Source: a phage. From it: 64,000 bases of DNA. Made by a program: the position numbers and the translations under genes. The stretch is taken from NCBI GenBank assembly GCA_033759635.1, contig GCA_033759635.1_4528.1. One strand, given 5' to 3'. Numbering within the stretch: position 1 is the first letter of the stretch; the number at the start of each line of letters is the position of its first letter. Shown here one piece after another: positions 30,086 through 60,528 of the stretch. Below the pieces are notes generated by a model. That model made no database searches, had not been told where the DNA came from, and saw nothing but the letters and a program-made list of their open reading frames with translations.

Positions 30086-32797
30086 ATGAAAGAATTTTAC
30101 TTAACGGTTGAACAGATTGGTGATTCAATTTTTGAACGTTACATCGATTCTAATGGCCGTGAACGTACTCGTGAAGTAGAATATAAACCATCACTGTTTG
30201 CTCATTGTCCAGAAAGTCAGGCTACGAAATATTTCGATATCTACGGTAAGCCGTGTACTCGTAAGTTGTTCGCTAATATGCGTGATGCCTCCCAATGGAT
30301 TAAACGCATGGAAGATATAGGACTTGAAGCACTTGGCATGGACGATTTCAAATTGGCGTATTTGTCTGACACTTATAACTATGAAATCAAATACGACCAT
30401 ACAAAAATTCGTGTGGCTAACTTCGACATCGAAGTAACATCTCCGGATGGGTTCCCTGAGCCGTCACAAGCAAAACATCCGATTGATGCTATCACCCATT
30501 ATGACTCAATTGACGACAGGTTCTACGTATTTGATCTATTGAATTCTCCGTATGGTAATGTAGAAGAATGGTCTATCGAAATTGCGGCTAAGCTTCAAGA
30601 ACAAGGTGGTGATGAAGTTCCATCCGAAATTATCGATAAAATCATTTATATGCCGTTCGATAACGAAAAAGAATTGTTGATGGAATATCTCAACTTCTGG
30701 CAACAGAAAACTCCTGTCATTTTGACTGGATGGAACGTTGAGTCATTTGATATTCCATATGTGTATAACCGAATCAAGAATATTTTTGGCGAATCTACTG
30801 CGAAACGTTTATCACCACATCGTAAAACTCGTGTTAAAGTTATCGAAAACATGTATGGTTCTCGTGAAATCATTACATTGTTCGGTATCTCTGTTCTTGA
30901 TTACATTGACCTTTACAAAAAATTCTCTTTTACCAATCAACCGTCGTATTCTCTGGATTACATTTCAGAATTTGAATTGAACGTTGGTAAACTGAAATAT
31001 GACGGCCCTATTTCTAAGCTTCGTGAAAGCAATCACCAACGATATATTTCTTATAACATTATCGACGTGTATCGTGTATTGCAAATTGATGCTAAGCGTC
31101 AGTTCATCAACTTGAGTTTGGACATGGGTTATTATGCTAAGATACAGATTCAATCTGTGTTTAGCCCAATTAAAACATGGGATGCTATTATTTTTAATAG
31201 CCTTAAAGAGCAGAACAAGGTGATTCCACAAGGTCGTTCTCACCCGGTTCAACCTTATCCTGGCGCTTTTGTTAAGGAACCTATTCCAAATCGATACAAA
31301 TATGTAATGAGTTTCGACCTTACATCTCTGTATCCAAGTATTATTCGCCAAGTGAATATTAGCCCGGAAACAATAGCAGGAACGTTTAAAGTAGCTCCAT
31401 TGCATGATTATATTAACGCAATCGCTGAACGTCCTTCAGATGTGTACAGCTGCTCTCCTAATGGCATGATGTATTATAAAGACCGTGATGGTGTAGTTCC
31501 AACTGAAATCACTAAGGTCTTTAATCAACGTAAAGAACATAAAGGTTATATGCTTGCGGCTCAACGTAATGGTGAAATAATTAAAGAGGCATTGCATAAT
31601 CCTAATCTTTCTGTTGACGAACCATTAGATGTTGATTATCGTTTCGACTTCAGTGATGAGATTAAAGAAAAGATTAAAAAGTTGTCTGCTAAATCTCTTA
31701 ATGAAATGTTGTTTAGAGCTCAACGTACTGAAGTTGCAGGTATGACTGCACAGATTAACCGTAAATTGCTCATCAACTCGCTTTATGGTGCACTTGGAAA
31801 CGTTTGGTTCCGTTATTATGATTTGCGTAATGCTACTGCAATCACAACATTCGGGCAAATGGCTTTACAGTGGATTGAACGTAAAGTTAATGAATATCTG
31901 AATGAAGTTTGTGGTACAGAAGGTGAAGCTTTCGTTCTTTATGGTGATACAGACTCTATTTACGTATCTGCTGATAAAATTATCGATAAGGTTGGTGAAT
32001 CTAAATTCCGTGATACCAACCATTGGGTAGACTTCTTAGATAAGTTCGCACGTGAACGTATGGAACCGGCTATTGATAGAGGTTTCCGTGAAATGTGTGA
32101 ATACATGAATAATAAGCAACATTTGATGTTCATGGACCGAGAAGCTATCGCTGGTCCTCCGCTCGGTTCTAAAGGTATTGGTGGATTCTGGACTGGTAAG
32201 AAACGTTATGCATTAAACGTGTGGGATATGGAAGGAACCAGATACGCTGAGCCTAAACTTAAAATCATGGGTCTAGAGACTCAGAAATCTTCGACCCCTA
32301 AAGCAGTACAGAAAGCTCTTAAAGAATGTATTCGTCGTATGCTTCAAGAAGGTGAAGAATCATTACAAGAATATTTTAAAGAGTTTGAAAAAGAATTCCG
32401 TCAATTGAATTATATTAGCATCGCGTCGGTATCTTCTGCGAATAACATTGCTAAATATGATGTAGGTGGATTCCCTGGTCCCAAATGCCCGTTCCATATT
32501 CGTGGAATTCTGACATATAACCGAGCTATCAAAGGTAATATTGATGCTCCACAAGTTGTAGAAGGTGAAAAAGTATACGTTCTGCCTTTACGTGATGGAA
32601 ACCCGTTCGGTGATAAATGTATCGCATGGCCTTCTGGTACGGAAATCACCGATTTAATCAAAGATGATGTACTTCATTGGATGGACTATACTGTTCTCCT
32701 TGAGAAGACATTTATTAAACCACTTGAAGGATTCACAACAGCAGCTAAACTCGATTACGAGAAGAAAGCATCTCTGTTCGATATGTTTGATTTTTGA
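30086..32797 (+). CDS. 43: DNA polymerase gp43 (family B, RB69-type)
   Basis: 903 aa; exonuclease motifs (FDIEV, YNIIDV), polymerase motifs (DLTSLYPS, KLLINSLYGALG, YGDTDS); N-terminus MKEFYLTVEQIGDSIFERYIDSNGRERTREVEYKPSLFAH matches recalled RB69 gp43. Confidence 0.95.
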   Translation: MKEFYLTVEQIGDSIFERYIDSNGRERTREVEYKPSLFAHCPESQATKYFDIYGKPCTRKLFANMRDASQWIKRMEDIGLEALGMDDFKLAYLSDTYNYEIKYDHTKIRVANFDIEVTSPDGFPEPSQAKHPIDAITHYDSIDDRFYVFDLLNSPYGNVEEWSIEIAAKLQEQGGDEVPSEIIDKIIYMPFDNEKELLMEYLNFWQQKTPVILTGWNVESFDIPYVYNRIKNIFGESTAKRLSPHRKTRVKVIENMYGSREIITLFGISVLDYIDLYKKFSFTNQPSYSLDYISEFELNVGKLKYDGPISKLRESNHQRYISYNIIDVYRVLQIDAKRQFINLSLDMGYYAKIQIQSVFSPIKTWDAIIFNSLKEQNKVIPQGRSHPVQPYPGAFVKEPIPNRYKYVMSFDLTSLYPSIIRQVNISPETIAGTFKVAPLHDYINAIAERPSDVYSCSPNGMMYYKDRDGVVPTEITKVFNQRKEHKGYMLAAQRNGEIIKEALHNPNLSVDEPLDVDYRFDFSDEIKEKIKKLSAKSLNEMLFRAQRTEVAGMTAQINRKLLINSLYGALGNVWFRYYDLRNATAITTFGQMALQWIERKVNEYLNEVCGTEGEAFVLYGDTDSIYVSADKIIDKVGESKFRDTNHWVDFLDKFARERMEPAIDRGFREMCEYMNNKQHLMFMDREAIAGPPLGSKGIGGFWTGKKRYALNVWDMEGTRYAEPKLKIMGLETQKSSTPKAVQKALKECIRRMLQEGEESLQEYFKEFEKEFRQLNYISIASVSSANNIAKYDVGGFPGPKCPFHIRGILTYNRAIKGNIDAPQVVEGEKVYVLPLRDGNPFGDKCIAWPSGTEITDLIKDDVLHWMDYTVLLEKTFIKPLEGFTTAAKLDYEKKASLFDMFDF

Positions 32798-32837
32798 TAT
32801 AATGCCAAGGACGGCCAACTAATTAAATGAGAGAAAT

Positions 32838-33473
32838 ATGAAAACTACTCCTATTACTATCGCTATTGACGCAATCATAAAACAAGCTTCTTCTTTGGCC
32901 GCTATGGCCAAAGTAATTAGTCAAAACCCTGCTCGTTATAATGCTATTCTAGAAACTCTTCGACGCCCAGGACTGAGTAATTATGAAAGTCGTGTAATTA
33001 TTACAGGTGTCGGTAAGAATGCTAATATCGCAACTAAAGCTTCCGAGACTTTTGCTTCATTGGGTATTCCTAGCATGTATTTGAACACCGGGCATTATTC
33101 TCATGGTGACGCAGGATTTATTGCACCTAATGATGTATTAGTTCACATCAGTCGTTCTGGTAAGACTGAAGAAATGATAGGTGTTGCTAAACATCTTCGT
33201 ATGATTCGTCCTCAGGTTAAACAGATTCTGTTACATTGTAACCCTGACATTCCACAAGAATACGAAGCTCTTTTTGATTATACGTTCTGTACCGGTATCG
33301 CGGTAGAAGTTGACGAGAACTCTTTAGCTCCGACAATGTCCACTACATTGTTGTTAGCGCTTATCGATACGTTCGCTATCAACCTTTCGTCTGAACGTGG
33401 ATTTACCTCTAATGATTTCCTTAAGTTCCATCCAGGCGGTGCACTAGGTGCCATGTTACGAGGCGAGCAATGA
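32838..33473 (+). CDS. SIS-domain sugar-phosphate isomerase, arabinose-5-phosphate isomerase-like (no CBS domains)
   Basis: 211 aa; VIITGVGKNANIA...FASLGIPSMYLNTGHYSHGDAGFIAPNDVLVHISRSGKTEE...SLAPTMSTT...HPGGALG closely parallels the KdsD/KpsF SIS domain. Confidence 0.7.
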   Translation: MKTTPITIAIDAIIKQASSLAAMAKVISQNPARYNAILETLRRPGLSNYESRVIITGVGKNANIATKASETFASLGIPSMYLNTGHYSHGDAGFIAPNDVLVHISRSGKTEEMIGVAKHLRMIRPQVKQILLHCNPDIPQEYEALFDYTFCTGIAVEVDENSLAPTMSTTLLLALIDTFAINLSSERGFTSNDFLKFHPGGALGAMLRGEQ

Positions 33474-33613
33474 AAGCAATAACAATAGGACTTTTACTAT
33501 TGATGCTTGTCATGACTATCTACTGGAGCTTAACGGCTCCAGTAATGATTCCGACTCTTATAATCGGATGGATTATGATTGGACTACAAGCAAAGTATGA
33601 ATGCTTTAACTAG
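33470..33613 (+). CDS. small membrane protein (47 aa, two hydrophobic helices)
   Basis: Not in track; ATGA overlap with upstream gene; read codon by codon to TAG 33611-33613. Confidence 0.35.
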   Translation: MKAITIGLLLLMLVMTIYWSLTAPVMIPTLIIGWIMIGLQAKYECFN

Positions 33614-33654
33614 AATAGTGTACAATACTCCTACTTACCAATGAGGACCACAAC

Positions 33655-35343
33655 ATGAAAAAAGCTGTTATTCTTGGTGCTGGATTAGCAACTCGTTTAT
33701 ATCCAATTACTCACCATATTCCTAAGGTGCTTGTTAACTATAAACAAGACACTATTCTGAGCAATTTGTATACAATTTATTCTGACCTTGGCGCAGATGA
33801 AATTATTGTAGTAGTTCATTCAAAATTTGCTGAAACTGTTCGAGCTTATTGTGAGCAAGAAGGGTTCAATGTGACTATTCGTACAGTTGATGAAGCGTAT
33901 GGTTCTGCTTATGCTCTTGCTAAATTACACAAAGATTTAGACGGCCATAACGTAATTGTTAACTGGTGTGATATTATTCCTGATTTTGGTTCATGGTCTT
34001 GGAATGTTAACGCAATCTATGTTAAGGGTGATGAATGTCGATATAATTTCGATGGTGAAAATATCACTAACGTAGGTTCAACTGGTGGTAATGTTGTAGG
34101 AATTTATCAGTTCAAAGACTGGGAATTCTATATGGGTTCTACTGATGAGGAAATTCATGAATACTGCAAAGGACGTGATTTCGTAGAATTCCTTTACAGC
34201 GGCGCATTCAATAAATCAGAGCTTATGAATATCATCGACCTTGGTGATATGCCTAAACTTGAAAAAGCTCATGAAGTTCGTGAACTTAATCGTAGTTTTA
34301 ATGCAGTTGAAATTGGTGAAGAAACGGTAACAAAGATTGCTTTAACAGAACAGGGCGTTGCACTTCAAAAAGATGAAGTCAATTGGTATAAGAAAGTTAA
34401 ATCAGATTCAGTTCCACGGATTGTAAGTTATCATCCTGGCGGCCACTTTATTATGGAACGCATTAAAGGTAAGCCGGCATTTGAATATATTAAATCCAAA
34501 TCAAGTCTTGCTCGTCCACAAATTGTTGATGCAATTTTAGATGCACTGAAATTCAGCACAGACATGTATTTTGTAAGTCCTGAAACTGTTCGTCGTGATT
34601 TCACTAAAGAATTCTATACGAAAGTTATTGATCGTTGTGAAAGTATTCAACCATTGATTGATTCATTTGGTAAAATCACACATGTGAACTACACTAAGAT
34701 TGGACGTCTGAAGCCAATGCTGAAGCAAGCTTTAGAACATCTTATTCGTTATCATACCCGTTCTCAGGGACAGTACTCTGTTATTCATGGTGACCCGAAC
34801 TTCAGTAATACTATGATTACTGATAACGGCGAAGTCAAGTTTATCGACCCTCGTGGATATTTTGGCGAAACCAAGATTTACGGGCCAAAATTGTACGATG
34901 AAGCTAAAGTGCTTTATGCTGTTTCAGGTTATGATGAATTCAATGCTAATCCGACCTGGGGACAGTTTACTATTGATGAAACAACTTGTAATGTGACTAT
35001 TAACATCAATCCATTAATTTACAAATATGGAAAGATGAGTTCGTTTAACGAGTATCATCATTTGGCGGTGGCAATTATCTGGATTGCATTAGGTGGTTAT
35101 TTCAAGAATAATCCACTTAAAGCGGTAGCCGCATATTATAAAGGTATGGAACTTCTGACTAAGCAATTACGCAACATGGGCCGTGTACTTCAAGACGGCT
35201 CTATTAGTTATGACGTAGCAGGACCTGTAACGGCTACTCTGATTACAAAAAATCCTGGTAAATGGGTACTAACTGATAAAGAAACTGGTGTTTCCTATCG
35301 TCCAATCGGTGGCGATATCACTCATCAATGGGAACGAATCTAA
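33655..35343 (+). CDS. bifunctional sugar-1-phosphate nucleotidyltransferase / APH-fold anomeric sugar kinase
   Basis: 562 aa; N-terminal ILGAGLATRLYPIT..PKVL NTP-transferase motif; C-terminal Brenner motif VIHGDPNFSNTMI and IDPRGYFG kinase motif. Confidence 0.7.
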   Translation: MKKAVILGAGLATRLYPITHHIPKVLVNYKQDTILSNLYTIYSDLGADEIIVVVHSKFAETVRAYCEQEGFNVTIRTVDEAYGSAYALAKLHKDLDGHNVIVNWCDIIPDFGSWSWNVNAIYVKGDECRYNFDGENITNVGSTGGNVVGIYQFKDWEFYMGSTDEEIHEYCKGRDFVEFLYSGAFNKSELMNIIDLGDMPKLEKAHEVRELNRSFNAVEIGEETVTKIALTEQGVALQKDEVNWYKKVKSDSVPRIVSYHPGGHFIMERIKGKPAFEYIKSKSSLARPQIVDAILDALKFSTDMYFVSPETVRRDFTKEFYTKVIDRCESIQPLIDSFGKITHVNYTKIGRLKPMLKQALEHLIRYHTRSQGQYSVIHGDPNFSNTMITDNGEVKFIDPRGYFGETKIYGPKLYDEAKVLYAVSGYDEFNANPTWGQFTIDETTCNVTININPLIYKYGKMSSFNEYHHLAVAIIWIALGGYFKNNPLKAVAAYYKGMELLTKQLRNMGRVLQDGSISYDVAGPVTATLITKNPGKWVLTDKETGVSYRPIGGDITHQWERI

Positions 35344-35729
35344 TGCACCGTGTAGAAAACATGCTTAATCTTTGTTTTGATGTCGATGATTGTATAACAG
35401 AGTGGAATAACAATCGTGATTACGTGAACTTCAAACCAGACGTCGAAATGGTGTCTGCCATTAATGCCCTGTATGATGCAGGGCATACCATAACGCTTTA
35501 CACTGCTCGTGGTATGAAGTCAGTAGGTCCTGGTCGTATAGCAATTGACATTCTCCCAAGTCTGATTCAGAACTTGGCAAACATTGGCTTGAAGTACCAT
35601 AATTTGCTAACACATAAACCAGTATATGATTGGATTATCGACGACAAAGCTATGCGTCCTGACGAATTCAAAGCTCTTATGAATAAAGGCGAATTCGAAA
35701 CATTTAAATCATATAAACCGAATCTATAA
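35343..35729 (+). CDS. HAD-superfamily phosphatase-like protein
   Basis: 128 aa from ATG 35343; motif I-like FDVDDCIT, TLYTAR, WIIDDKA. Confidence 0.45.
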   Translation: MHRVENMLNLCFDVDDCITEWNNNRDYVNFKPDVEMVSAINALYDAGHTITLYTARGMKSVGPGRIAIDILPSLIQNLANIGLKYHNLLTHKPVYDWIIDDKAMRPDEFKALMNKGEFETFKSYKPNL

Positions 35730-35783
35730 TAATTTAAGTAAGACCTGCAAAAACCATCGCATCAATTAACGCGAGATGCAAAA

Positions 35784-36944
35784 ATGAATACTTTTAAAAT
35801 CGGAACGAATTTTGATTTAGCTCTTCTTGATAAAATCGTAGAGCTCAATAAAACTTATCCTAATAGCTTGATAAACGAAGTATACGGCTCTACAAGAGAA
35901 ATGGCTTTTGTAGCAGCCAGACCTGATTTTAGGCTTCCTGACGTTGACAAAAAGATGTTAGAAGATTACGTTAAACGTTGTAACGAATTAGGTATTTGCT
36001 TTAACTATACACTCAACACGATAAATCCTGGTTCAAAAAGAGAACTAGTCGAGTGGAAGAAGAAAGCTATTCAGGATTATGTTCAGTATCTTTGGTCAAT
36101 AGGCGTATGGCGTATTACTATCGCTAACCCTGTTGTTATGGAAATTGTTCGTGAAGTCAATAAAGACATTGAGATTGAAGTTTCAACAATTCTACATGTC
36201 GATGCTGTAACTCAAATAAAATACTTACATGACCAATACAATATCAAAAAGGTCTGCTGTGGAATTCATAAGAACCGTTCAGTTTCTTTCCTGAAGCGTG
36301 CAGCAGAGTTTTGCAATAAGAACAATATAATATTTGAAGTTCTTGTAAATGAGTTCTGTTCTAATGCTGGTAAAGGGTATACAACACATTGTAGTTATCG
36401 TGACTCTTGCTATATTTTCCATAGTACTGATGTTACAGCTGATGATGCTAAATCCTTAAATGGATATCCAATGCAACACTGCATTAAAGCTCGTGATACA
36501 GACCCATTTAACTGGTTGAGAACTCGTTTTGTTCGTCCTCAAGATTTGAAACTTTATAATGATATTGGTATCACTCAATTCAAAGTTTCAGGACGTACAG
36601 GTAGCACAGACTACATTTTGAAAGTTCTTGAAGCATACGCTTCTGAAAAGTTTGAAGGTAATTTGTTAGAACTGTGGAAGCCTTTAGAGACTATTTTCAC
36701 TCTTGAAAATGAAACTGAGTTTTCACATACAGTAAATATTGAAACCTCTTTGTTAGATGGCTTTTTAGAAAAAAGGTGGTTCAGACATCCAGATTTTGAT
36801 TGTGCTAATGAAATCTGTGGATCAACGTGTACATATTGTGAAAGATATTATAAACGTCAATTATCTAAAAACGGGTTAGCAGAAAACTCTATATCTATTA
36901 TTGATATAACTAACTCTGATGACGCTCTGAGGTACCCGGAATGA
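35784..36944 (+). CDS. U32-family (peptidase U32 / RlhA-TrhP-UbiU-like) protein, putative Fe-S enzyme
   Basis: 386 aa; FNYTLNT and ITIANPVVMEIVREV..DIEIEVST resemble the U32 barrel; C..SYRDSCY resembles the U32 Cys signature; extra C-x4-C-x3-C-x2-C cluster near C-terminus; recalled motifs only. Confidence 0.5.
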   Translation: MNTFKIGTNFDLALLDKIVELNKTYPNSLINEVYGSTREMAFVAARPDFRLPDVDKKMLEDYVKRCNELGICFNYTLNTINPGSKRELVEWKKKAIQDYVQYLWSIGVWRITIANPVVMEIVREVNKDIEIEVSTILHVDAVTQIKYLHDQYNIKKVCCGIHKNRSVSFLKRAAEFCNKNNIIFEVLVNEFCSNAGKGYTTHCSYRDSCYIFHSTDVTADDAKSLNGYPMQHCIKARDTDPFNWLRTRFVRPQDLKLYNDIGITQFKVSGRTGSTDYILKVLEAYASEKFEGNLLELWKPLETIFTLENETEFSHTVNIETSLLDGFLEKRWFRHPDFDCANEICGSTCTYCERYYKRQLSKNGLAENSISIIDITNSDDALRYPE

Positions 36945-37180
36945 TTTCTAGAAAAACTTTTAATCACCAACTTAATGAAGAGATTTTGACTATTAAACTG
37001 AACACTAACGAACAAATTCTTAAAAAGGCCCTTATGGGCCTGTTTGAAACTAAAGCGGCTAAAGCGATTAAAGAACCTGTTCAACTAGAATACTATGCCG
37101 ACGCATTCCTTCATAGTGTCCTTGGAAGTATTGATGCCGAAGCTCTACGTTATATCAACATCGCTAAGAAATTCAAATAA
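36941..37180 (+). CDS. hypothetical protein (79 aa)
   Basis: ORF track; ATGA overlap. Confidence 0.5.
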   Translation: MISRKTFNHQLNEEILTIKLNTNEQILKKALMGLFETKAAKAIKEPVQLEYYADAFLHSVLGSIDAEALRYINIAKKFK

Positions 37181-37203
37181 GCTTTATGAATTGAGTATAT
37201 AAT
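37179..37203 (+). promoter_or_regulatory. candidate middle promoter upstream of gene 42
   Basis: MotA-box-like AAGCTTTA 37179-37186, about 11 nt, TATAAT 37198-37203. Confidence 0.4.
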
Positions 37204-37221
37204 AACTGTATTGAGGTAAAC

Positions 37222-37938
37222 ATGGGAAAACATAACACAATGAAATATATTAAAGCCGCAGATTTTCAATCCGCATTTAAAGCTGTCAATCGTGAAATTT
37301 TAGAAAACCCGGAATTCGTAACTGATTCTCGTATTGGACGTTGTAATGAAATTGGGTCTATGACAGTAGTTGTTGACACTCCATCATCATTCAAAATGAC
37401 CGACCCACGTATTAATCGCATCTCTTATGAATATGCTGAAGATTTCTGGAAGTTTATGATTTCTGGTGGTACTGATGCAGAAGAAGCATTTAAGGCATAT
37501 CCTAATGTCGCTAAATTTATTTCTAAACCAAAATCAGATGTTTTGCCTGCAAACTTCAACACTTTCTACGGTCCTCGCATTGCGGCCCAATTACCAGCTC
37601 TTCTAAAAGAACTTAAAGAGAAACCTAACTCTCGAAGAGTTGTGTTCCAAATTCTAGAAAGTTCTGATCAGGCTTTGCTTGATTCGGACGAAACACTTGA
37701 ATATCCATGTACTGACTCGGTAACTTATTATATTCGTGATGGTAAGCTTTATACTCACTGTCATATGCGTTCCCAGAACTGTGCTGTTGTTATGCAGTTG
37801 GATTTTTATCTCCAAGGAAAATTACTTCATTATATCGCTAACGAATGTGGTGTAGAAGTTGGTGATTATACTCATACCATGGTAAGTGCCCATGTGTTTG
37901 AACGTGATTTTGATTATGTTAAAGGATTCCTTGACTAA
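37222..37938 (+). CDS. 42: dCMP hydroxymethylase (thymidylate synthase fold)
   Basis: 238 aa; active-site region YPCTDSVTYYIRDGKLYTHCHMRSQN parallels recalled T4 gp42 (MCTNTVQYLIRD..NMRSND); position between 43 and uvsX. Confidence 0.75.
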   Translation: MGKHNTMKYIKAADFQSAFKAVNREILENPEFVTDSRIGRCNEIGSMTVVVDTPSSFKMTDPRINRISYEYAEDFWKFMISGGTDAEEAFKAYPNVAKFISKPKSDVLPANFNTFYGPRIAAQLPALLKELKEKPNSRRVVFQILESSDQALLDSDETLEYPCTDSVTYYIRDGKLYTHCHMRSQNCAVVMQLDFYLQGKLLHYIANECGVEVGDYTHTMVSAHVFERDFDYVKGFLD

Positions 37939-38837
37939 TGGCTATTTTCCGCGTACCAATCTTGAGTATGCGGTCTTATGAAACTGGACAGTATGCTATC
38001 CTTAAGGATGGCAACTTCCAACTTCATTTGCACCGTGCTAATCCAGGCGATGTGATTACATATCCACGTAATGCATCTGATATTAAAGAATGTGAACGTC
38101 TTTTCCCAGAATTTAAGTTTGTTCCATTATGGTATAAAGATAACGCGTATAACACTCGTAAATATTTCTGGTCTGAAAATGAATTTGTGGTTGATTCATT
38201 AATTGCTTATTATGATTGTGATTTTCTAATCACAGATATCACTGGATATGATGGCGCTTTTGACGTAGAATTCAATTTCAATATCACTGCAGACCCTAAT
38301 AAACCACGTTTTTATATTGATGAATTCTTAAAAACCGACATGTTGTCTGTTAATCGTTCACTTCAAACTACTGTGTTGAATGAACGTCAAAAAGAAGTGC
38401 TGGTTAACGCAGGTGCAGATGGTAATAAGATTATCGTAACGCAGAAAGTTATACGTCCTTCCGTCATGCAGCGTCTTGTAGGTGATTTGGCTCCTATTCA
38501 TCTAGATGGTATTTTTCATCCATTTCGAATTAGTGACCCATGCTATCGTTTTGAACAAGTTGTTGAATGCGCAATTCAATTAGGTCAACCGCTTTATATA
38601 ACTGATCCAAATAATAGCTTCGACAGAAATAAGTATCCTGAAGAAGCGCTGATTCGAATTTTTAATCCAACTAAAACTGAGTACTATCAAATTCTTAAAG
38701 GACGTCCGAAGATTCAATATTTCGAAAATCCTGAAGAAGTATTCCATCCAGGTCTTGGTGAGTTCATCTACTTTAATGCTTTAATTTCTTCGCCGTATAA
38801 TATACCTAAATACGAAGATGTCGTAATCGAGGAATAA
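37938..38837 (+). CDS. hypothetical protein (299 aa) at the position of T4 beta-gt
   Basis: ORF track; no resemblance to recalled T4 beta-glucosyltransferase. Confidence 0.6.
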   Translation: MAIFRVPILSMRSYETGQYAILKDGNFQLHLHRANPGDVITYPRNASDIKECERLFPEFKFVPLWYKDNAYNTRKYFWSENEFVVDSLIAYYDCDFLITDITGYDGAFDVEFNFNITADPNKPRFYIDEFLKTDMLSVNRSLQTTVLNERQKEVLVNAGADGNKIIVTQKVIRPSVMQRLVGDLAPIHLDGIFHPFRISDPCYRFEQVVECAIQLGQPLYITDPNNSFDRNKYPEEALIRIFNPTKTEYYQILKGRPKIQYFENPEEVFHPGLGEFIYFNALISSPYNIPKYEDVVIEE

Positions 38838-38838
38838 A

Positions 38839-39387
38839 ATGGCTAAAATTATTTTAGTAGATGGCCCGGATAATGCCGGTAAAACAACTTTCATTAATGA
38901 CATAATGGAAATTAGTGAAAGATATGTAAAGATTGATTTCCCTAAACGAACAGTTGATGGACGTTTCGATGTTAAGTCTCGAAATGAAGTTGGTTGTTTC
39001 GAAACGATGTTGAATTATTTAGACCCTACTAAGATTTATCTGTTAGACCGTGGATATATTAGTAACTGGGTTTATGGACGTATTCGACAAGATGCGGACT
39101 CGGTTCTTGACGTTTATGAACAGGACTATGTTCGTCTTTGCCAAAACCATGATGTGTTCACAATTATTTTAACACGTAACGAAATGACTGAAAGTTTTGA
39201 AGACGACCTTATTACTTTGTCTTCATTCGGTTTTAATACAGTCATTTCACATTTTGAAGAGTTTGCAATTCATAACAAAATCCAAACATATCAATTACTT
39301 AATCATGATGGTGCTAACAAAGTTATAGGATTTAATGCAAGCGAACGTAATGGTTTGATTACAGAAATCATCAAATGGGCTCGTTAA
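38839..39387 (+). CDS. P-loop nucleoside/nucleotide kinase-like protein
   Basis: 182 aa; Walker A LVDGPDNAGKTT; LDRGYIS resembles the DRY/DRS motif of dNK/TMPK kinases. Confidence 0.5.
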   Translation: MAKIILVDGPDNAGKTTFINDIMEISERYVKIDFPKRTVDGRFDVKSRNEVGCFETMLNYLDPTKIYLLDRGYISNWVYGRIRQDADSVLDVYEQDYVRLCQNHDVFTIILTRNEMTESFEDDLITLSSFGFNTVISHFEEFAIHNKIQTYQLLNHDGANKVIGFNASERNGLITEIIKWAR

Positions 39388-39400
39388 GAGCCATTTAAAG
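39373..39400 (+). terminator. terminator-like imperfect hairpin before uvsX
   Basis: atgggctc-gtta-agagccat with a one-base bulge, followed by an A/T-rich tract. Confidence 0.3.
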
Positions 39401-39485
39401 TTTTAAATGCTGTATAACCCTTAGTATATAATCATCTTATCTTTTAAACATGAGTAAAATATAATGATGCCTATGGAAAAATACA

Positions 39486-40658
39486 ATGTCTGATTTAAAA
39501 TCTCGTCTGATTAAAGCTTCTACTTCTAAAATGACTGCAGACTTGACTAAGTCTAAGCTGTTTAATAATCGTGATGAAGTCCCTACTCGTATTCCGATGT
39601 TGAATATTGCACTAGGTGGTGCTCTGAATGCAGGATTGCAATCAGGCTTGACTATTTTTGCTGCACCTTCTAAACATTTTAAAACATTGTTTGGACTAAC
39701 TATGGTTGCAGCTTATATGAAGAAATATAAAGATGCAATCTGTTTGTTCTATGACTCAGAATTCGGTGCTTCAGAATCTTATTTTCGTTCAATGGGTGTC
39801 GATTTAGACCGTGTAGTTCATACTCCTATTCAATCTGTCGAACAACTTAAAGTTGATATGACTAATCAGCTTGACGCTATTGAACGCGGTGATAAAGTTA
39901 TTATCTTTATCGATTCAATCGGTAATACTGCATCTAAGAAAGAAACCGAAGATGCATTGAACGAGAAAGTCGTAGGTGATATGTCTCGTGCTAAGGCACT
40001 TAAATCTCTTTTCCGTATTGTAACTCCTTATCTGACTATTAAAGATATTCCATGTGTTGCAATCAACCATACAGCAATGGAAATCGGCGGATTGTATCCT
40101 AAAGAGATTATGGGCGGTGGTACAGGTATTCTTTATTCTGCCAACACGGTATTTTTTATCTCTAAACGTCAGGTTAAAGAAGGTACAGAATTGACCGGTT
40201 ATGACTTCACGTTGAAAGCGGAAAAATCTCGTACAGTTAAAGAGAAATCTACTTTCCCGATCACGGTTAATTTTGATGGCGGTATTGACCCATTCAGTGG
40301 CTTGTTAGAAATGGCAACTGAAATTGGTTTTGTAGTTAAGCCTAAAGCCGGGTGGTATGCTCGTGAATTCCTTGACGAAGAAACAGGCGAAATGATTCGT
40401 GAAGAGAAATCATGGCGTGCTAAAGCTACTGATTGTGTAGAATTCTGGGGACCTTTGTTTAAACATAAGCCTTTCCGAGATGCAATTGAAACTAAATATA
40501 AACTAGGTGCTATCTCTTCTATTAAAGAAGTTGATGACGCTGTTAACGACCTTATTAATTGCAAAGCAACAACTAAAGTTCCTGTTAAAGCTTCTGATGC
40601 TCCGTCTGCAGCAGATATTGAAAACGACCTTGACGAAATGGAAGATTTCGATGAATAA
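39486..40658 (+). CDS. uvsX: RecA-like recombinase UvsX
   Basis: 390 aa; N-terminus MSDLKSRLIKASTSKMTADLT matches recalled T4 UvsX. Confidence 0.9.
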   Translation: MSDLKSRLIKASTSKMTADLTKSKLFNNRDEVPTRIPMLNIALGGALNAGLQSGLTIFAAPSKHFKTLFGLTMVAAYMKKYKDAICLFYDSEFGASESYFRSMGVDLDRVVHTPIQSVEQLKVDMTNQLDAIERGDKVIIFIDSIGNTASKKETEDALNEKVVGDMSRAKALKSLFRIVTPYLTIKDIPCVAINHTAMEIGGLYPKEIMGGGTGILYSANTVFFISKRQVKEGTELTGYDFTLKAEKSRTVKEKSTFPITVNFDGGIDPFSGLLEMATEIGFVVKPKAGWYAREFLDEETGEMIREEKSWRAKATDCVEFWGPLFKHKPFRDAIETKYKLGAISSIKEVDDAVNDLINCKATTKVPVKASDAPSAADIENDLDEMEDFDE

Positions 40659-59427: not shown

Positions 59428-60528
59428 ATGAAAGTTATGTTTATCCCATCTCGCGCAGTCCCATTTAACCCAGAACGTGTACAAGGTGGTCTTGAAGCAG
59501 TACATTTAAATGTGTTGAAATATCTTGTGTCCATCGGTGCTGATATTGATTATATCGGCTTTGATAATGACACATTTGGTGATTGGAAGGTTAATCATCA
59601 TCCTGTTGGTCATCTGACTAAATTCAGTCTAGGTATGAGTTATACTATGGCTCGTAAGATTGTTGAACTAGCCGGCATCCATGAATACGATTTCGTTGTT
59701 ACTATGGAACCGACTAAACTAACCGTTCAGGCAATTAAAGACGCAGGTCTCTCTAAAGTTCATAAGAATTTTATGGCAACACCATTTGAACCGGTATCTC
59801 GTGGCATTGTTCAAATTTGGGACCAGACTATTCAAATTCATAAGAACGGTGGTAAGAGTTATGCTCCTACTAAAGCCTTCCGTGAATTTGAACGTAAATA
59901 TTGTTATATGACTTCAGGTCTGACTGACAAAATTGATTATGATTATTGGCGAGCAAATCCGTTGTTTGAAGCCGAAGATTATCCGGTTATTTGTTTGAAT
60001 GAGAAACATGAAGTTCTTCCGGCGACTGATCTGATTATTAGTGCACAACGTTATGACACTAAAATGCGTCGTACTGATGTTGCTCTTGAAGCGATTAAAG
60101 CACTAGGCGAAAATGGTATTGGTTATTGTCCTAGTAAATGGGCACCACCGGCTAAGTATCCTGTTATTATTGATGCTCCACACAGTGAAATCATGGAACG
60201 TCTTAAAACAGCTAAAGCACTTATCAATACGTGTCCTGACACGGGTACGGTAGAGAATAGTTCTATTGAAGCCATCTCTAAAGGTGTCCCTGTGATTCAG
60301 TTAGTTTTTAAGGATTATCCGCACGCGACATTCGAATATGACCCAGATACTGTGCGTGTAGAAATTGATTCCTCTACTCCTAAGAAAGAAGTAGTTGCGC
60401 TTTACACAAAAGCTGTATTAGAATTCACTGACACATACGAAGCTCGAGTTAAACGTGCTGAAGCAGTATGGAAGAAGTATAACCGAGATGCGGTTGTTGC
60501 GATGTGGGATAAAATCTTCACAGCGTAA
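59428..60528 (+). CDS. GT-B fold glycosyltransferase (GT4-like), candidate DNA hydroxymethylcytosine glycosyltransferase
   Basis: 366 aa; N-terminal MKVMFIPSRAVPFNPERVQGGLEAV resembles the GT4/GT5 GGL(E/A) motif; lies between gene 39 and rIIA.1/rIIA. Confidence 0.65.
   Translation: MKVMFIPSRAVPFNPERVQGGLEAVHLNVLKYLVSIGADIDYIGFDNDTFGDWKVNHHPVGHLTKFSLGMSYTMARKIVELAGIHEYDFVVTMEPTKLTVQAIKDAGLSKVHKNFMATPFEPVSRGIVQIWDQTIQIHKNGGKSYAPTKAFREFERKYCYMTSGLTDKIDYDYWRANPLFEAEDYPVICLNEKHEVLPATDLIISAQRYDTKMRRTDVALEAIKALGENGIGYCPSKWAPPAKYPVIIDAPHSEIMERLKTAKALINTCPDTGTVENSSIEAISKGVPVIQLVFKDYPHATFEYDPDTVRVEIDSSTPKKEVVALYTKAVLEFTDTYEARVKRAEAVWKKYNRDAVVAMWDKIFTA

Follow-up and report, generated by a model that had tools for sequence, protein, structure and literature searches.

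The gene at 33655..35343 (+) of the window, a 64,000-nucleotide stretch of phage DNA (contig GCA_033759635.1_4528.1 of assembly GCA_033759635.1), encodes a 562-aa protein that we read, with a probability of roughly 90%, as an AfhE-type bifunctional enzyme of a four-step phage pathway to UDP-D-arabinofuranose. The protein combines an N-terminal nucleotidyltransferase (NT) domain with a C-terminal kinase domain. In the proposed pathway, the SIS-domain isomerase encoded at 32838-33473 would convert host ribulose-5-phosphate to D-arabinose-5-phosphate (Ara5P), and the kinase domain would use ATP to phosphorylate Ara5P at the anomeric C1, giving arabinose-1,5-bisphosphate (Ara1,5P2). The HAD phosphatase encoded downstream (35343-35729), predicted to be translationally coupled, would strip off the 5-phosphate to leave arabinose-1-phosphate (Ara1P), and the NT domain would convert Ara1P and UTP to UDP-arabinofuranose (UDP-Araf). 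Afterwards, the GT-B transferases encoded at 37938-38837 and 59428-60528 would move arabinose from UDP-Araf to 5-hydroxycytosine in the DNA, and the arabinosylated base would shield the phage DNA from host nucleases. The analysis itself established both folds, the intactness of the catalytic residues, the surrounding genes and the near-identity to a characterised protein; the substrates, the order of the steps and the use of UTP were taken second-hand from the literature. Because two of the four steps are its own, the AfhE-type enzyme would fix which sugar reaches the DNA, and because UDP-arabinose is no normal metabolite of Enterobacteriaceae, the phage must make its own donor.

The gene starts with an ATG, and a Shine-Dalgarno sequence read as GAGGA lies at 33643..33647 (+), 7 nt 5' of the start at 33655. 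The TAA stop codon at 35341-35343 shares a TAATG overlap with the ATG of the following HAD gene. The single 562-aa open reading frame (ORF) of the initial annotation is an exact entry of the ORF finder, and the four motifs quoted there were all located in its translation: ILGAGLATRL at aa 6-15, PK at aa 23-24, HGDPNFSN at aa 378-385 and IDPRGYFG at aa 397-404. The gene differs from its counterpart in phage HY126 at 43 nt, 33 of them at third codon positions, and the amino acid is altered in only 8 codons; relative to the gene of phage SHSML-52-1, 18 of 23 nt differences are at third positions. Given the third-position bias against HY126 and the presence of homologues in 374 phage records, 33655-35343 is a genuine gene under purifying selection and no chance ORF. 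A scan of 32600-39600 for sigma-70 promoters and terminators found 22 promoter-like sites where 27.8 would be expected by chance, using a model that does not include T4-type early or middle promoters.

The NT domain (33655..34269, +; aa 1 to about 205) has the reported role of converting Ara1P and UTP to UDP-Araf. The Pfam model PF00483 (NTP_transferase) matches aa 3-99 with 38.9 bits against a gathering cut-off of 21.2, the alignment being confined to that part of the domain. In an alignment of 66 homologues reaching down to 25% identity, G10, R14, K24 and D106 are invariant, and in the xDxG motif D195 is conserved in 58 of 66 sequences and G197 in all 66; these residues presumably have the roles assigned to their equivalents in RmlA. 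Structure comparison of the model described below revealed an RmlA/MurU-like fold, which places the domain within the sugar-1-phosphate nucleotidyltransferase fold. The N-terminal sugar-1-phosphate nucleotidyltransferase named in the initial annotation was thus confirmed by a profile above threshold, by invariant signature residues and by the fold. In NCBIfam, only remote nucleotidyltransferase models match the 562-aa protein, all far under their cut-offs. The MurU equivalog NF045761, whose cut-off is 250 bits, scored 25.1, so the protein is related to MurU, yet is not MurU. When the whole protein was searched by sequence against the PDB, the NT domain alone gave matches (best LicC, E 2e-5), and this search did not find a solved structure of the protein or of a near relative.

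The kinase domain (34279..35208, +; aa about 209-518) is of the choline kinase/APH type, and its reported role is the conversion of Ara5P and ATP to Ara1,5P2. Its Pfam scores stay under the gathering cut-offs for APH (16.8 vs 23.2), Fructosamin_kin (16.8 vs 22.4) and EcKL (15.6 vs 22), and the RIO1 and ABC1 models likewise match below threshold. Since sequence alone could not place the domain, a fold comparison was needed, and an AlphaFold2 model of the 562-aa protein was built on the 66 homologues (mean predicted local distance difference test score, pLDDT, 94.3; predicted template modelling score 0.91). The structural matches listed for the C-terminal domain are all protein-kinase-like. K227, E241, H378, G379, D380, N385 and D398 are invariant in 66 of 66 homologues, and the hallmarks of the kinase are present: the catalytic loop H-x-D-x4-N, a downstream Mg-binding Asp and the N-lobe Lys/Glu pair. 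These matches and residues bear out the APH/choline-kinase-like domain that had been proposed for the C-terminus, and both domain assignments agree with the modelled folds. Profile searches, which had been expected to recover both domains, did so for the NT domain (38.9 vs 21.2 bits) and gave only sub-threshold scores for the kinase. Because the 66 homologues show no variation in the catalytic hallmarks of either domain, both halves of the protein are predicted to be intact enzymes. The kinase domain has further basic positions that are invariant in this alignment (R213, R327, R400 and K418), and we infer that they fit a doubly anionic phosphosugar as the substrate.

About 45 aa follow the kinase domain as a C-terminal tail (35209..35340, +; aa 519-562), which was modelled with short strands at a pLDDT of 82-91. 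The tail occurs in 43 of the 66 aligned homologues, namely the T4-like phage members, and is missing from distant and multi-domain relatives. It has conserved K/W/D/E/T positions. The tail may serve to dock the HAD phosphatase.

The 562-aa protein was compared with XAN60479.1 of phage HY126, and 554 of 562 residues were identical (98.6%) over the full and equal length of the two proteins. The eight substitutions (S182G, G183S, M304T, T368N, G392C, T448S, I455V and G523E) do not affect any invariant position. PHROG 4098 also covers the full length of the protein (E 6e-293). The RB69 equivalent, ORF53_52c, was named in 2018 together with the SIS isomerase ORF055c as a candidate for UDP-arabinose synthesis (Thomas et al., PMC6024577). 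In RB69 DNA, 5-hydroxycytosine is present in mono- and di-arabinosylated form (Lee et al., NAR 2026, PMC13326640), the acceptor base being 5-hydroxycytosine and not hydroxymethylcytosine (PMC13326640). Lee et al. equated AfhE with RB69 gp52:53 and AfhF with RB69 gp51 (PMC13326640). According to their account of assays on HY126 AfhE and AfhF (He et al. 2026, cited in PMC13326640), Ara5P is converted to Ara1,5P2 and then to Ara1P, after which AfhE converts Ara1P and UTP to UDP-Araf. AfhF is described there as a Mg2+-dependent phosphatase acting on Araf-1,5-P2 to give Araf-1-P (PMC13326640). The C1 phosphorylation and the subsequent formation of an NDP-sugar as the donor for DNA glycosylation, both anticipated by the initial annotation, match this account of the 99%-identical HY126 AfhE. 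The substrate suggested for the kinase, free D-arabinose, did not hold, as the reported substrate is D-arabinose-5-phosphate, supplied by the upstream SIS isomerase. The gene is therefore already known: attention was drawn to it in 2018, and the biochemistry of a 99%-identical protein was reportedly worked out in 2026; the window contributes one further allele of a known enzyme. The modification itself is of wider importance: in Mosigvirus and many other T4-like phages, arabinosylated 5-hydroxycytosine guards the genome against restriction enzymes and alters the sensitivity to other defence systems.

The gene neighbourhood is in line with the proposed pathway. The set expected around an AfhE-type gene (isomerase, HAD phosphatase, ThyA-like protein and glycosyltransferases) is complete in the window and stands in the same order in RB69. 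In a distant T4-like metagenomic phage, in which the NT-kinase protein is 36% identical, the order of SIS, NT-kinase, small HAD, ThyA-like, glycosyltransferase and Tmk-like genes is also kept. TH1_060, a 55%-identical homologue, is essential for the propagation of the Shewanella phage Thanatos (PMC12838424).

Several points weigh against the assignment of the protein to the AfhE-type pathway. The equation of AfhE with XAN60479.1 was inferred from the described architecture and not from an accession. No Pfam profile assigns the kinase domain to a curated family above threshold, and a kinase-domain profile searched against the PDB reaches solved kinases at E values of at least 0.02 only, the marginal matches lying around the catalytic loop (RIO2, E 0.02; APH(3'), E 0.4). 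The choice of UTP comes from the literature and not from the sequence. In assays with xylose-1-phosphate and each of five NTPs, purified TH1_060 was inactive as a pyrophosphorylase (PMC12838424), which is weak evidence because xylose-1-phosphate was the wrong sugar. Finally, Table 1 of PMC13326640 keeps a scheme in which the HAD protein converts Ara5P to arabinose and the kinase converts arabinose to Ara1P, while the text of that paper adopts the bisphosphate route.

The scheme in that table corresponds to a free-sugar salvage order, in which the HAD protein would act first and release free D-arabinose from Ara5P, the kinase would phosphorylate the sugar at C1 as AmgK and FKP do, and the NT domain would form the NDP-sugar. 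This order is contradicted by the HY126 AfhE/AfhF assays cited in the text of PMC13326640, as far as they are described there (Ara5P → Ara1,5P2 → Ara1P), and by the likening of the HAD protein to GmhB-type bisphosphate phosphatases in the same paper. The kinase domain moreover has many invariant basic residues, which on our interpretation fit a phosphosugar and so argue against the salvage order, and we consider this order unlikely. The AmgK/MurU or FKP salvage logic in the initial annotation should accordingly be replaced by ADP-heptose logic, as a separate HAD phosphatase step is reported to stand between the kinase and the NT domain.

The combination of a LicC-like NT domain with a choline kinase-type domain would also be expected of a LicA/LicC-type fusion, in which a choline or alcohol kinase and a CTP:phospho-alcohol cytidylyltransferase produce a CDP-activated head group. 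The gene, however, is flanked by genes for an arabinose-5-phosphate isomerase and a sugar-phosphate-type HAD phosphatase, the phage DNA bears arabinose and not phosphocholine (PMC6024577, PMC13326640), and the protein is 99% identical to an enzyme reported to make UDP-arabinose, so that phosphocholine activation is very improbable. We give equally little credence to the 562-aa protein being itself a DNA glycosyltransferase, as was suggested for TH1_060 from a match to 'glycosyltransferase family A' in the Conserved Domain Database (CDD; PMC12838424). The CDD does put the N-terminal domain in a GT-A-like superfamily (PMC6024577, PMC12838424), and loss of TH1_060 abolishes phage growth (PMC12838424). 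Against this, the domain has the GxGxR...K signature and its matches are sugar-1-phosphate nucleotidyltransferases and not GT-A transferases, TH1_060 moved nothing onto DNA in vitro (PMC12838424), and the cluster has separate GT-B transferases. Both roles were rejected on the basis of cluster context, signature and identity to AfhE.

The distribution of the AfhE-type gene was analysed by tblastn, and the fused gene was found in 374 of 50,697 phage records, including phages of Escherichia (177), Acinetobacter (57), Klebsiella (25), Vibrio (17) and Shigella (15). When 1.84 billion proteins were searched with a kinase-domain profile, 492 representatives (50% identity level) scored E <= 1e-30, and architectures were counted for the best 150 of these. 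The NT+kinase architecture, with a length of 480-600 aa, accounted for 94 of the 150. With 374 phage records and 94 of the 150 best relatives carrying it, the fusion is the rule for the family and not an oddity of the phage in the window. The view that it is unusual in a T-even backbone could not be maintained: it is standard in Mosigvirus and occurs in many other Straboviridae, as these records attest, and it had been noted in 2018 (PMC6024577).

Another 14 of the best 150 relatives are proteins of about 890-1011 aa with the kinase at the far C-terminus. The three inspected (P0081, P0083 and P0094) have HAD, SIS, NT and kinase domains fused in a single chain of about 900 aa, and one protein (P0091) is a SIS+NT+kinase fusion; a SIS-fused bacterial homologue has been noted for Butyrivibrio (PMC6024577). 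The four-domain proteins have a HAD domain of the larger HAD_2 type, which differs from the 128-aa HAD protein of the phage. The four-domain proteins are encoded on 21%-GC contigs (loci L003-L005) that further contain an XRN exonuclease gene and numerous orphan genes, and also in one eukaryotic transcriptome (P0083); the contigs with eukaryote-type genes are possibly from giant viruses. In proteins of about 779 aa (P0104-P0106, locus L006), the NT-kinase is followed by a C-terminal cupin domain (mannose-6-phosphate-isomerase-like), and the next gene encodes an epimerase-HAD fusion. These cupin-fused variants suggest that the same kinase-phosphatase-transferase scheme serves a different sugar. 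Locus L007, on a metagenomic contig that is probably archaeal (diphthamide synthase, L10e-type ribosomal protein), carries genes for SIS, an NT-kinase (28% identical), a 127-aa ORF and a 312-aa ORF together, without a ThyA homologue; because the cluster lacks this homologue, the module appears to be used outside phage DNA modification as well.

The Rosetta-stone fusions, the conserved gene order and the adjacency of the SIS, NT-kinase and 127-aa ORF genes at locus L007 provide independent support for the proposed UDP-arabinose pathway. The multi-domain fusions and the non-phage clusters suggest use of the module well beyond DNA modification. It is conceivable, at somewhat less than even odds, that the NT-kinase module forms the core of a widespread and largely unrecognised route from sugar-omega-phosphates to NDP-sugars that needs no phosphomutase. 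If so, the four-domain proteins would make NDP-D-arabinofuranose from ribulose-5-phosphate in one polypeptide, presumably for glycans and not for DNA.

The window is from a Mosigvirus, an RB69-like T-even phage, and over 24 kb around the gene many Mosigvirus records match it at about 97% identity. The genes run gp45, gp44, gp62, regA and gp43, followed by an insert of 8-9 genes and uvsX, and the AfhE-type gene lies between the DNA polymerase gene and uvsX in both the window and RB69. The cluster keeps its gene order in HY126, with an identity of 98.4% or more for each gene. In RB69, aa 1-218 correspond to RB69p053 (ORF053c) and aa 219-562 to RB69p052 (ORF052c), as one surplus C in the RB69 record splits the gene; the frame is intact in the window, at about 95% nt identity, and the window protein is one codon longer than the joined RB69 protein (562 vs 561 aa). 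The surplus C was shown to be a sequencing error by re-sequencing (Thomas et al. 2018, PMC6024577). In the RB69 reference NC_004928 (28094-29780), the gene is still split into RB69p052 and RB69p053. RB69p046 and RB69p047 are likewise split, and correspond to a single 299-aa ORF in the window. Annotation copied from NC_004928 will miss both full-length proteins.

Upstream of the AfhE-type gene, the SIS-domain D-arabinose-5-phosphate isomerase (32838..33473, +; equivalent to RB69 gp55, ORF055c) was identified by Pfam SIS (E 1e-9) and PHROG 5670 'arabinose 5-phosphate isomerase' (E 3e-116). The NCBIfam models KpsF/GutQ (E 9e-32) and KdsD (E 4e-30) also match it, both under their cut-offs, and the protein is 98.6% identical to that of HY126. 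A very hydrophobic 47-aa ORF (33470..33613, +; translation MKAITIGLLLLMLVMTIYWSLTAPVMIPTLIIGWIMIGLQAKYECFN) overlaps the isomerase stop codon and sits between the isomerase and NT/kinase genes. It is 100% identical in HY126 and hypothetical in relatives, and Pfam gave no match for it. Downstream, the 128-aa HAD-type phosphatase (35343..35729, +; equivalent to AfhF and RB69 gp51) is 100% identical to the HY126 protein, for which conversion of Ara1,5P2 to Ara1P is reported (PMC13326640). It has a DVDD motif (DxD, HAD) close to the N-terminus and matches the NCBIfam capsule-biosynthesis phosphatase TIGR01689 with E 4e-13, under the cut-off. In phage records and in PHROG 1238, this protein is often wrongly labelled 'phosphoheptose isomerase'.

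The gene for a U32-family Fe-S protein, which is not assigned to the arabinose pathway, follows (35784..36944, +), and a 79-aa ORF (36941..37180, +; RB69 ORF049c equivalent; PHROG 8601, unknown function) overlaps its end. The 79-aa ORF is probably a variable or decaying small gene, since the annotated HY126 product has only 40 aa. The thymidylate-synthase homologue (37222..37938, +; RB69 gp48 equivalent) matches Pfam Thymidylat_synt (E 2e-15), is 98.7% identical to the HY126 protein and is reported to be a flavin-dependent 5-hydroxy-dCMP synthase (PMC13326640). The 299-aa protein encoded at 37938..38837 (+), equivalent to RB69 gp46:47 by its position at RB69p046+p047 and assigned to PHROG 3891, is the putative first DNA arabinosyltransferase, a role proposed in PMC13326640; Pfam gave no match. 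A thymidylate-kinase-like nucleotide kinase of 182 aa (38839..39387, +; RB69 gp45 equivalent) was assigned from PHROG 761 'thymidylate kinase' (E 6e-45) and the RB69p045 annotation. The candidate second DNA arabinosyltransferase (59428..60528, +; RB69 ORF003c/gp3 equivalent) lies apart from the cluster, between the topoisomerase gene and rIIA. Its role was proposed in PMC6024577 and PMC13326640. This protein also gave no Pfam match, and its identity came from comparison with RB69p003 (362 of 366 residues identical).

The U32 protein, rather than the AfhE gene, is the more interesting lead of this region. It has 386 aa, is equivalent to RB69 gp50, matches Pfam PF01136 (E 7e-11) and has the U32 protein 5d88 as its top Foldseek match. 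Its ten invariant cysteines include a C-terminal Cx4Cx3Cx2C motif. Across arabinosylating phages it is 79-88% identical, compared with 55-72% for AfhE. Relatives that are 48-58% identical occur in other phage-like contigs, where they lie among dCMP deaminase, Tmk, NT5C and dNK genes and not among sugar genes. The protein was found in 222 phage records, none of them from Acinetobacter phages, although 57 Acinetobacter records carry AfhE. The U32 members RlhA and TrhP are required for the O2-independent, prephenate-dependent C5-hydroxylation of RNA cytidine and uridine (PMC5727448; PMC6599085), and by analogy the phage protein may lead to 5-hydroxycytosine without O2, alongside the ThyA homologue, which depends on O2 and flavin. 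RB69 gp50 is labelled 'sugar or heterocycle reductase' in PMC13326640, without a link to pyrimidine hydroxylation.

The AfhE-type enzyme was finally compared with known kinase-nucleotidyltransferase systems. Its domains are homologous in type to MurU and LicC (NT) and to AmgK and LicA (choline kinase/APH). AmgK/MurU and LicA/LicC, however, are pairs of separate proteins that act on an unphosphorylated substrate without a phosphatase step. Bacteroides FKP, the L-fucokinase/GDP-fucose pyrophosphorylase, resembles the AfhE-type enzyme in having an anomeric kinase and a nucleotidyltransferase in one polypeptide. Its kinase is of the GHMP type and acts on the free sugar; no GHMP kinase was among the structural matches listed for the C-terminal domain of the 562-aa protein, which was therefore not classified as an FKP. 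In ADP-heptose synthesis, the GmhA isomerase, the HldE kinase, the GmhB phosphatase and the HldE transferase act in turn, with kinase and transferase fused in HldE. The proposed arabinose pathway is like this one in each of its elements: a SIS isomerase, a C1 kinase for a distally phosphorylated sugar, a HAD protein removing the distal phosphate, and a nucleotidyltransferase. HldE itself combines a PfkB/ribokinase-type kinase with a cytidylyltransferase-type transferase, whereas the AfhE-type enzyme combines a protein-kinase-like with an RmlA/MurU-like domain. Neither a PfkB-type nor a cytidylyltransferase-type match to the 562-aa protein was seen in Pfam, NCBIfam or the structural matches, so membership in HldE was ruled out. 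Because the folds are unrelated, the AfhE-type and HldE fusions are analogous and not homologous. A phage pathway that copies the logic of ADP-heptose synthesis with unrelated folds would be a clean case of convergent pathway design.

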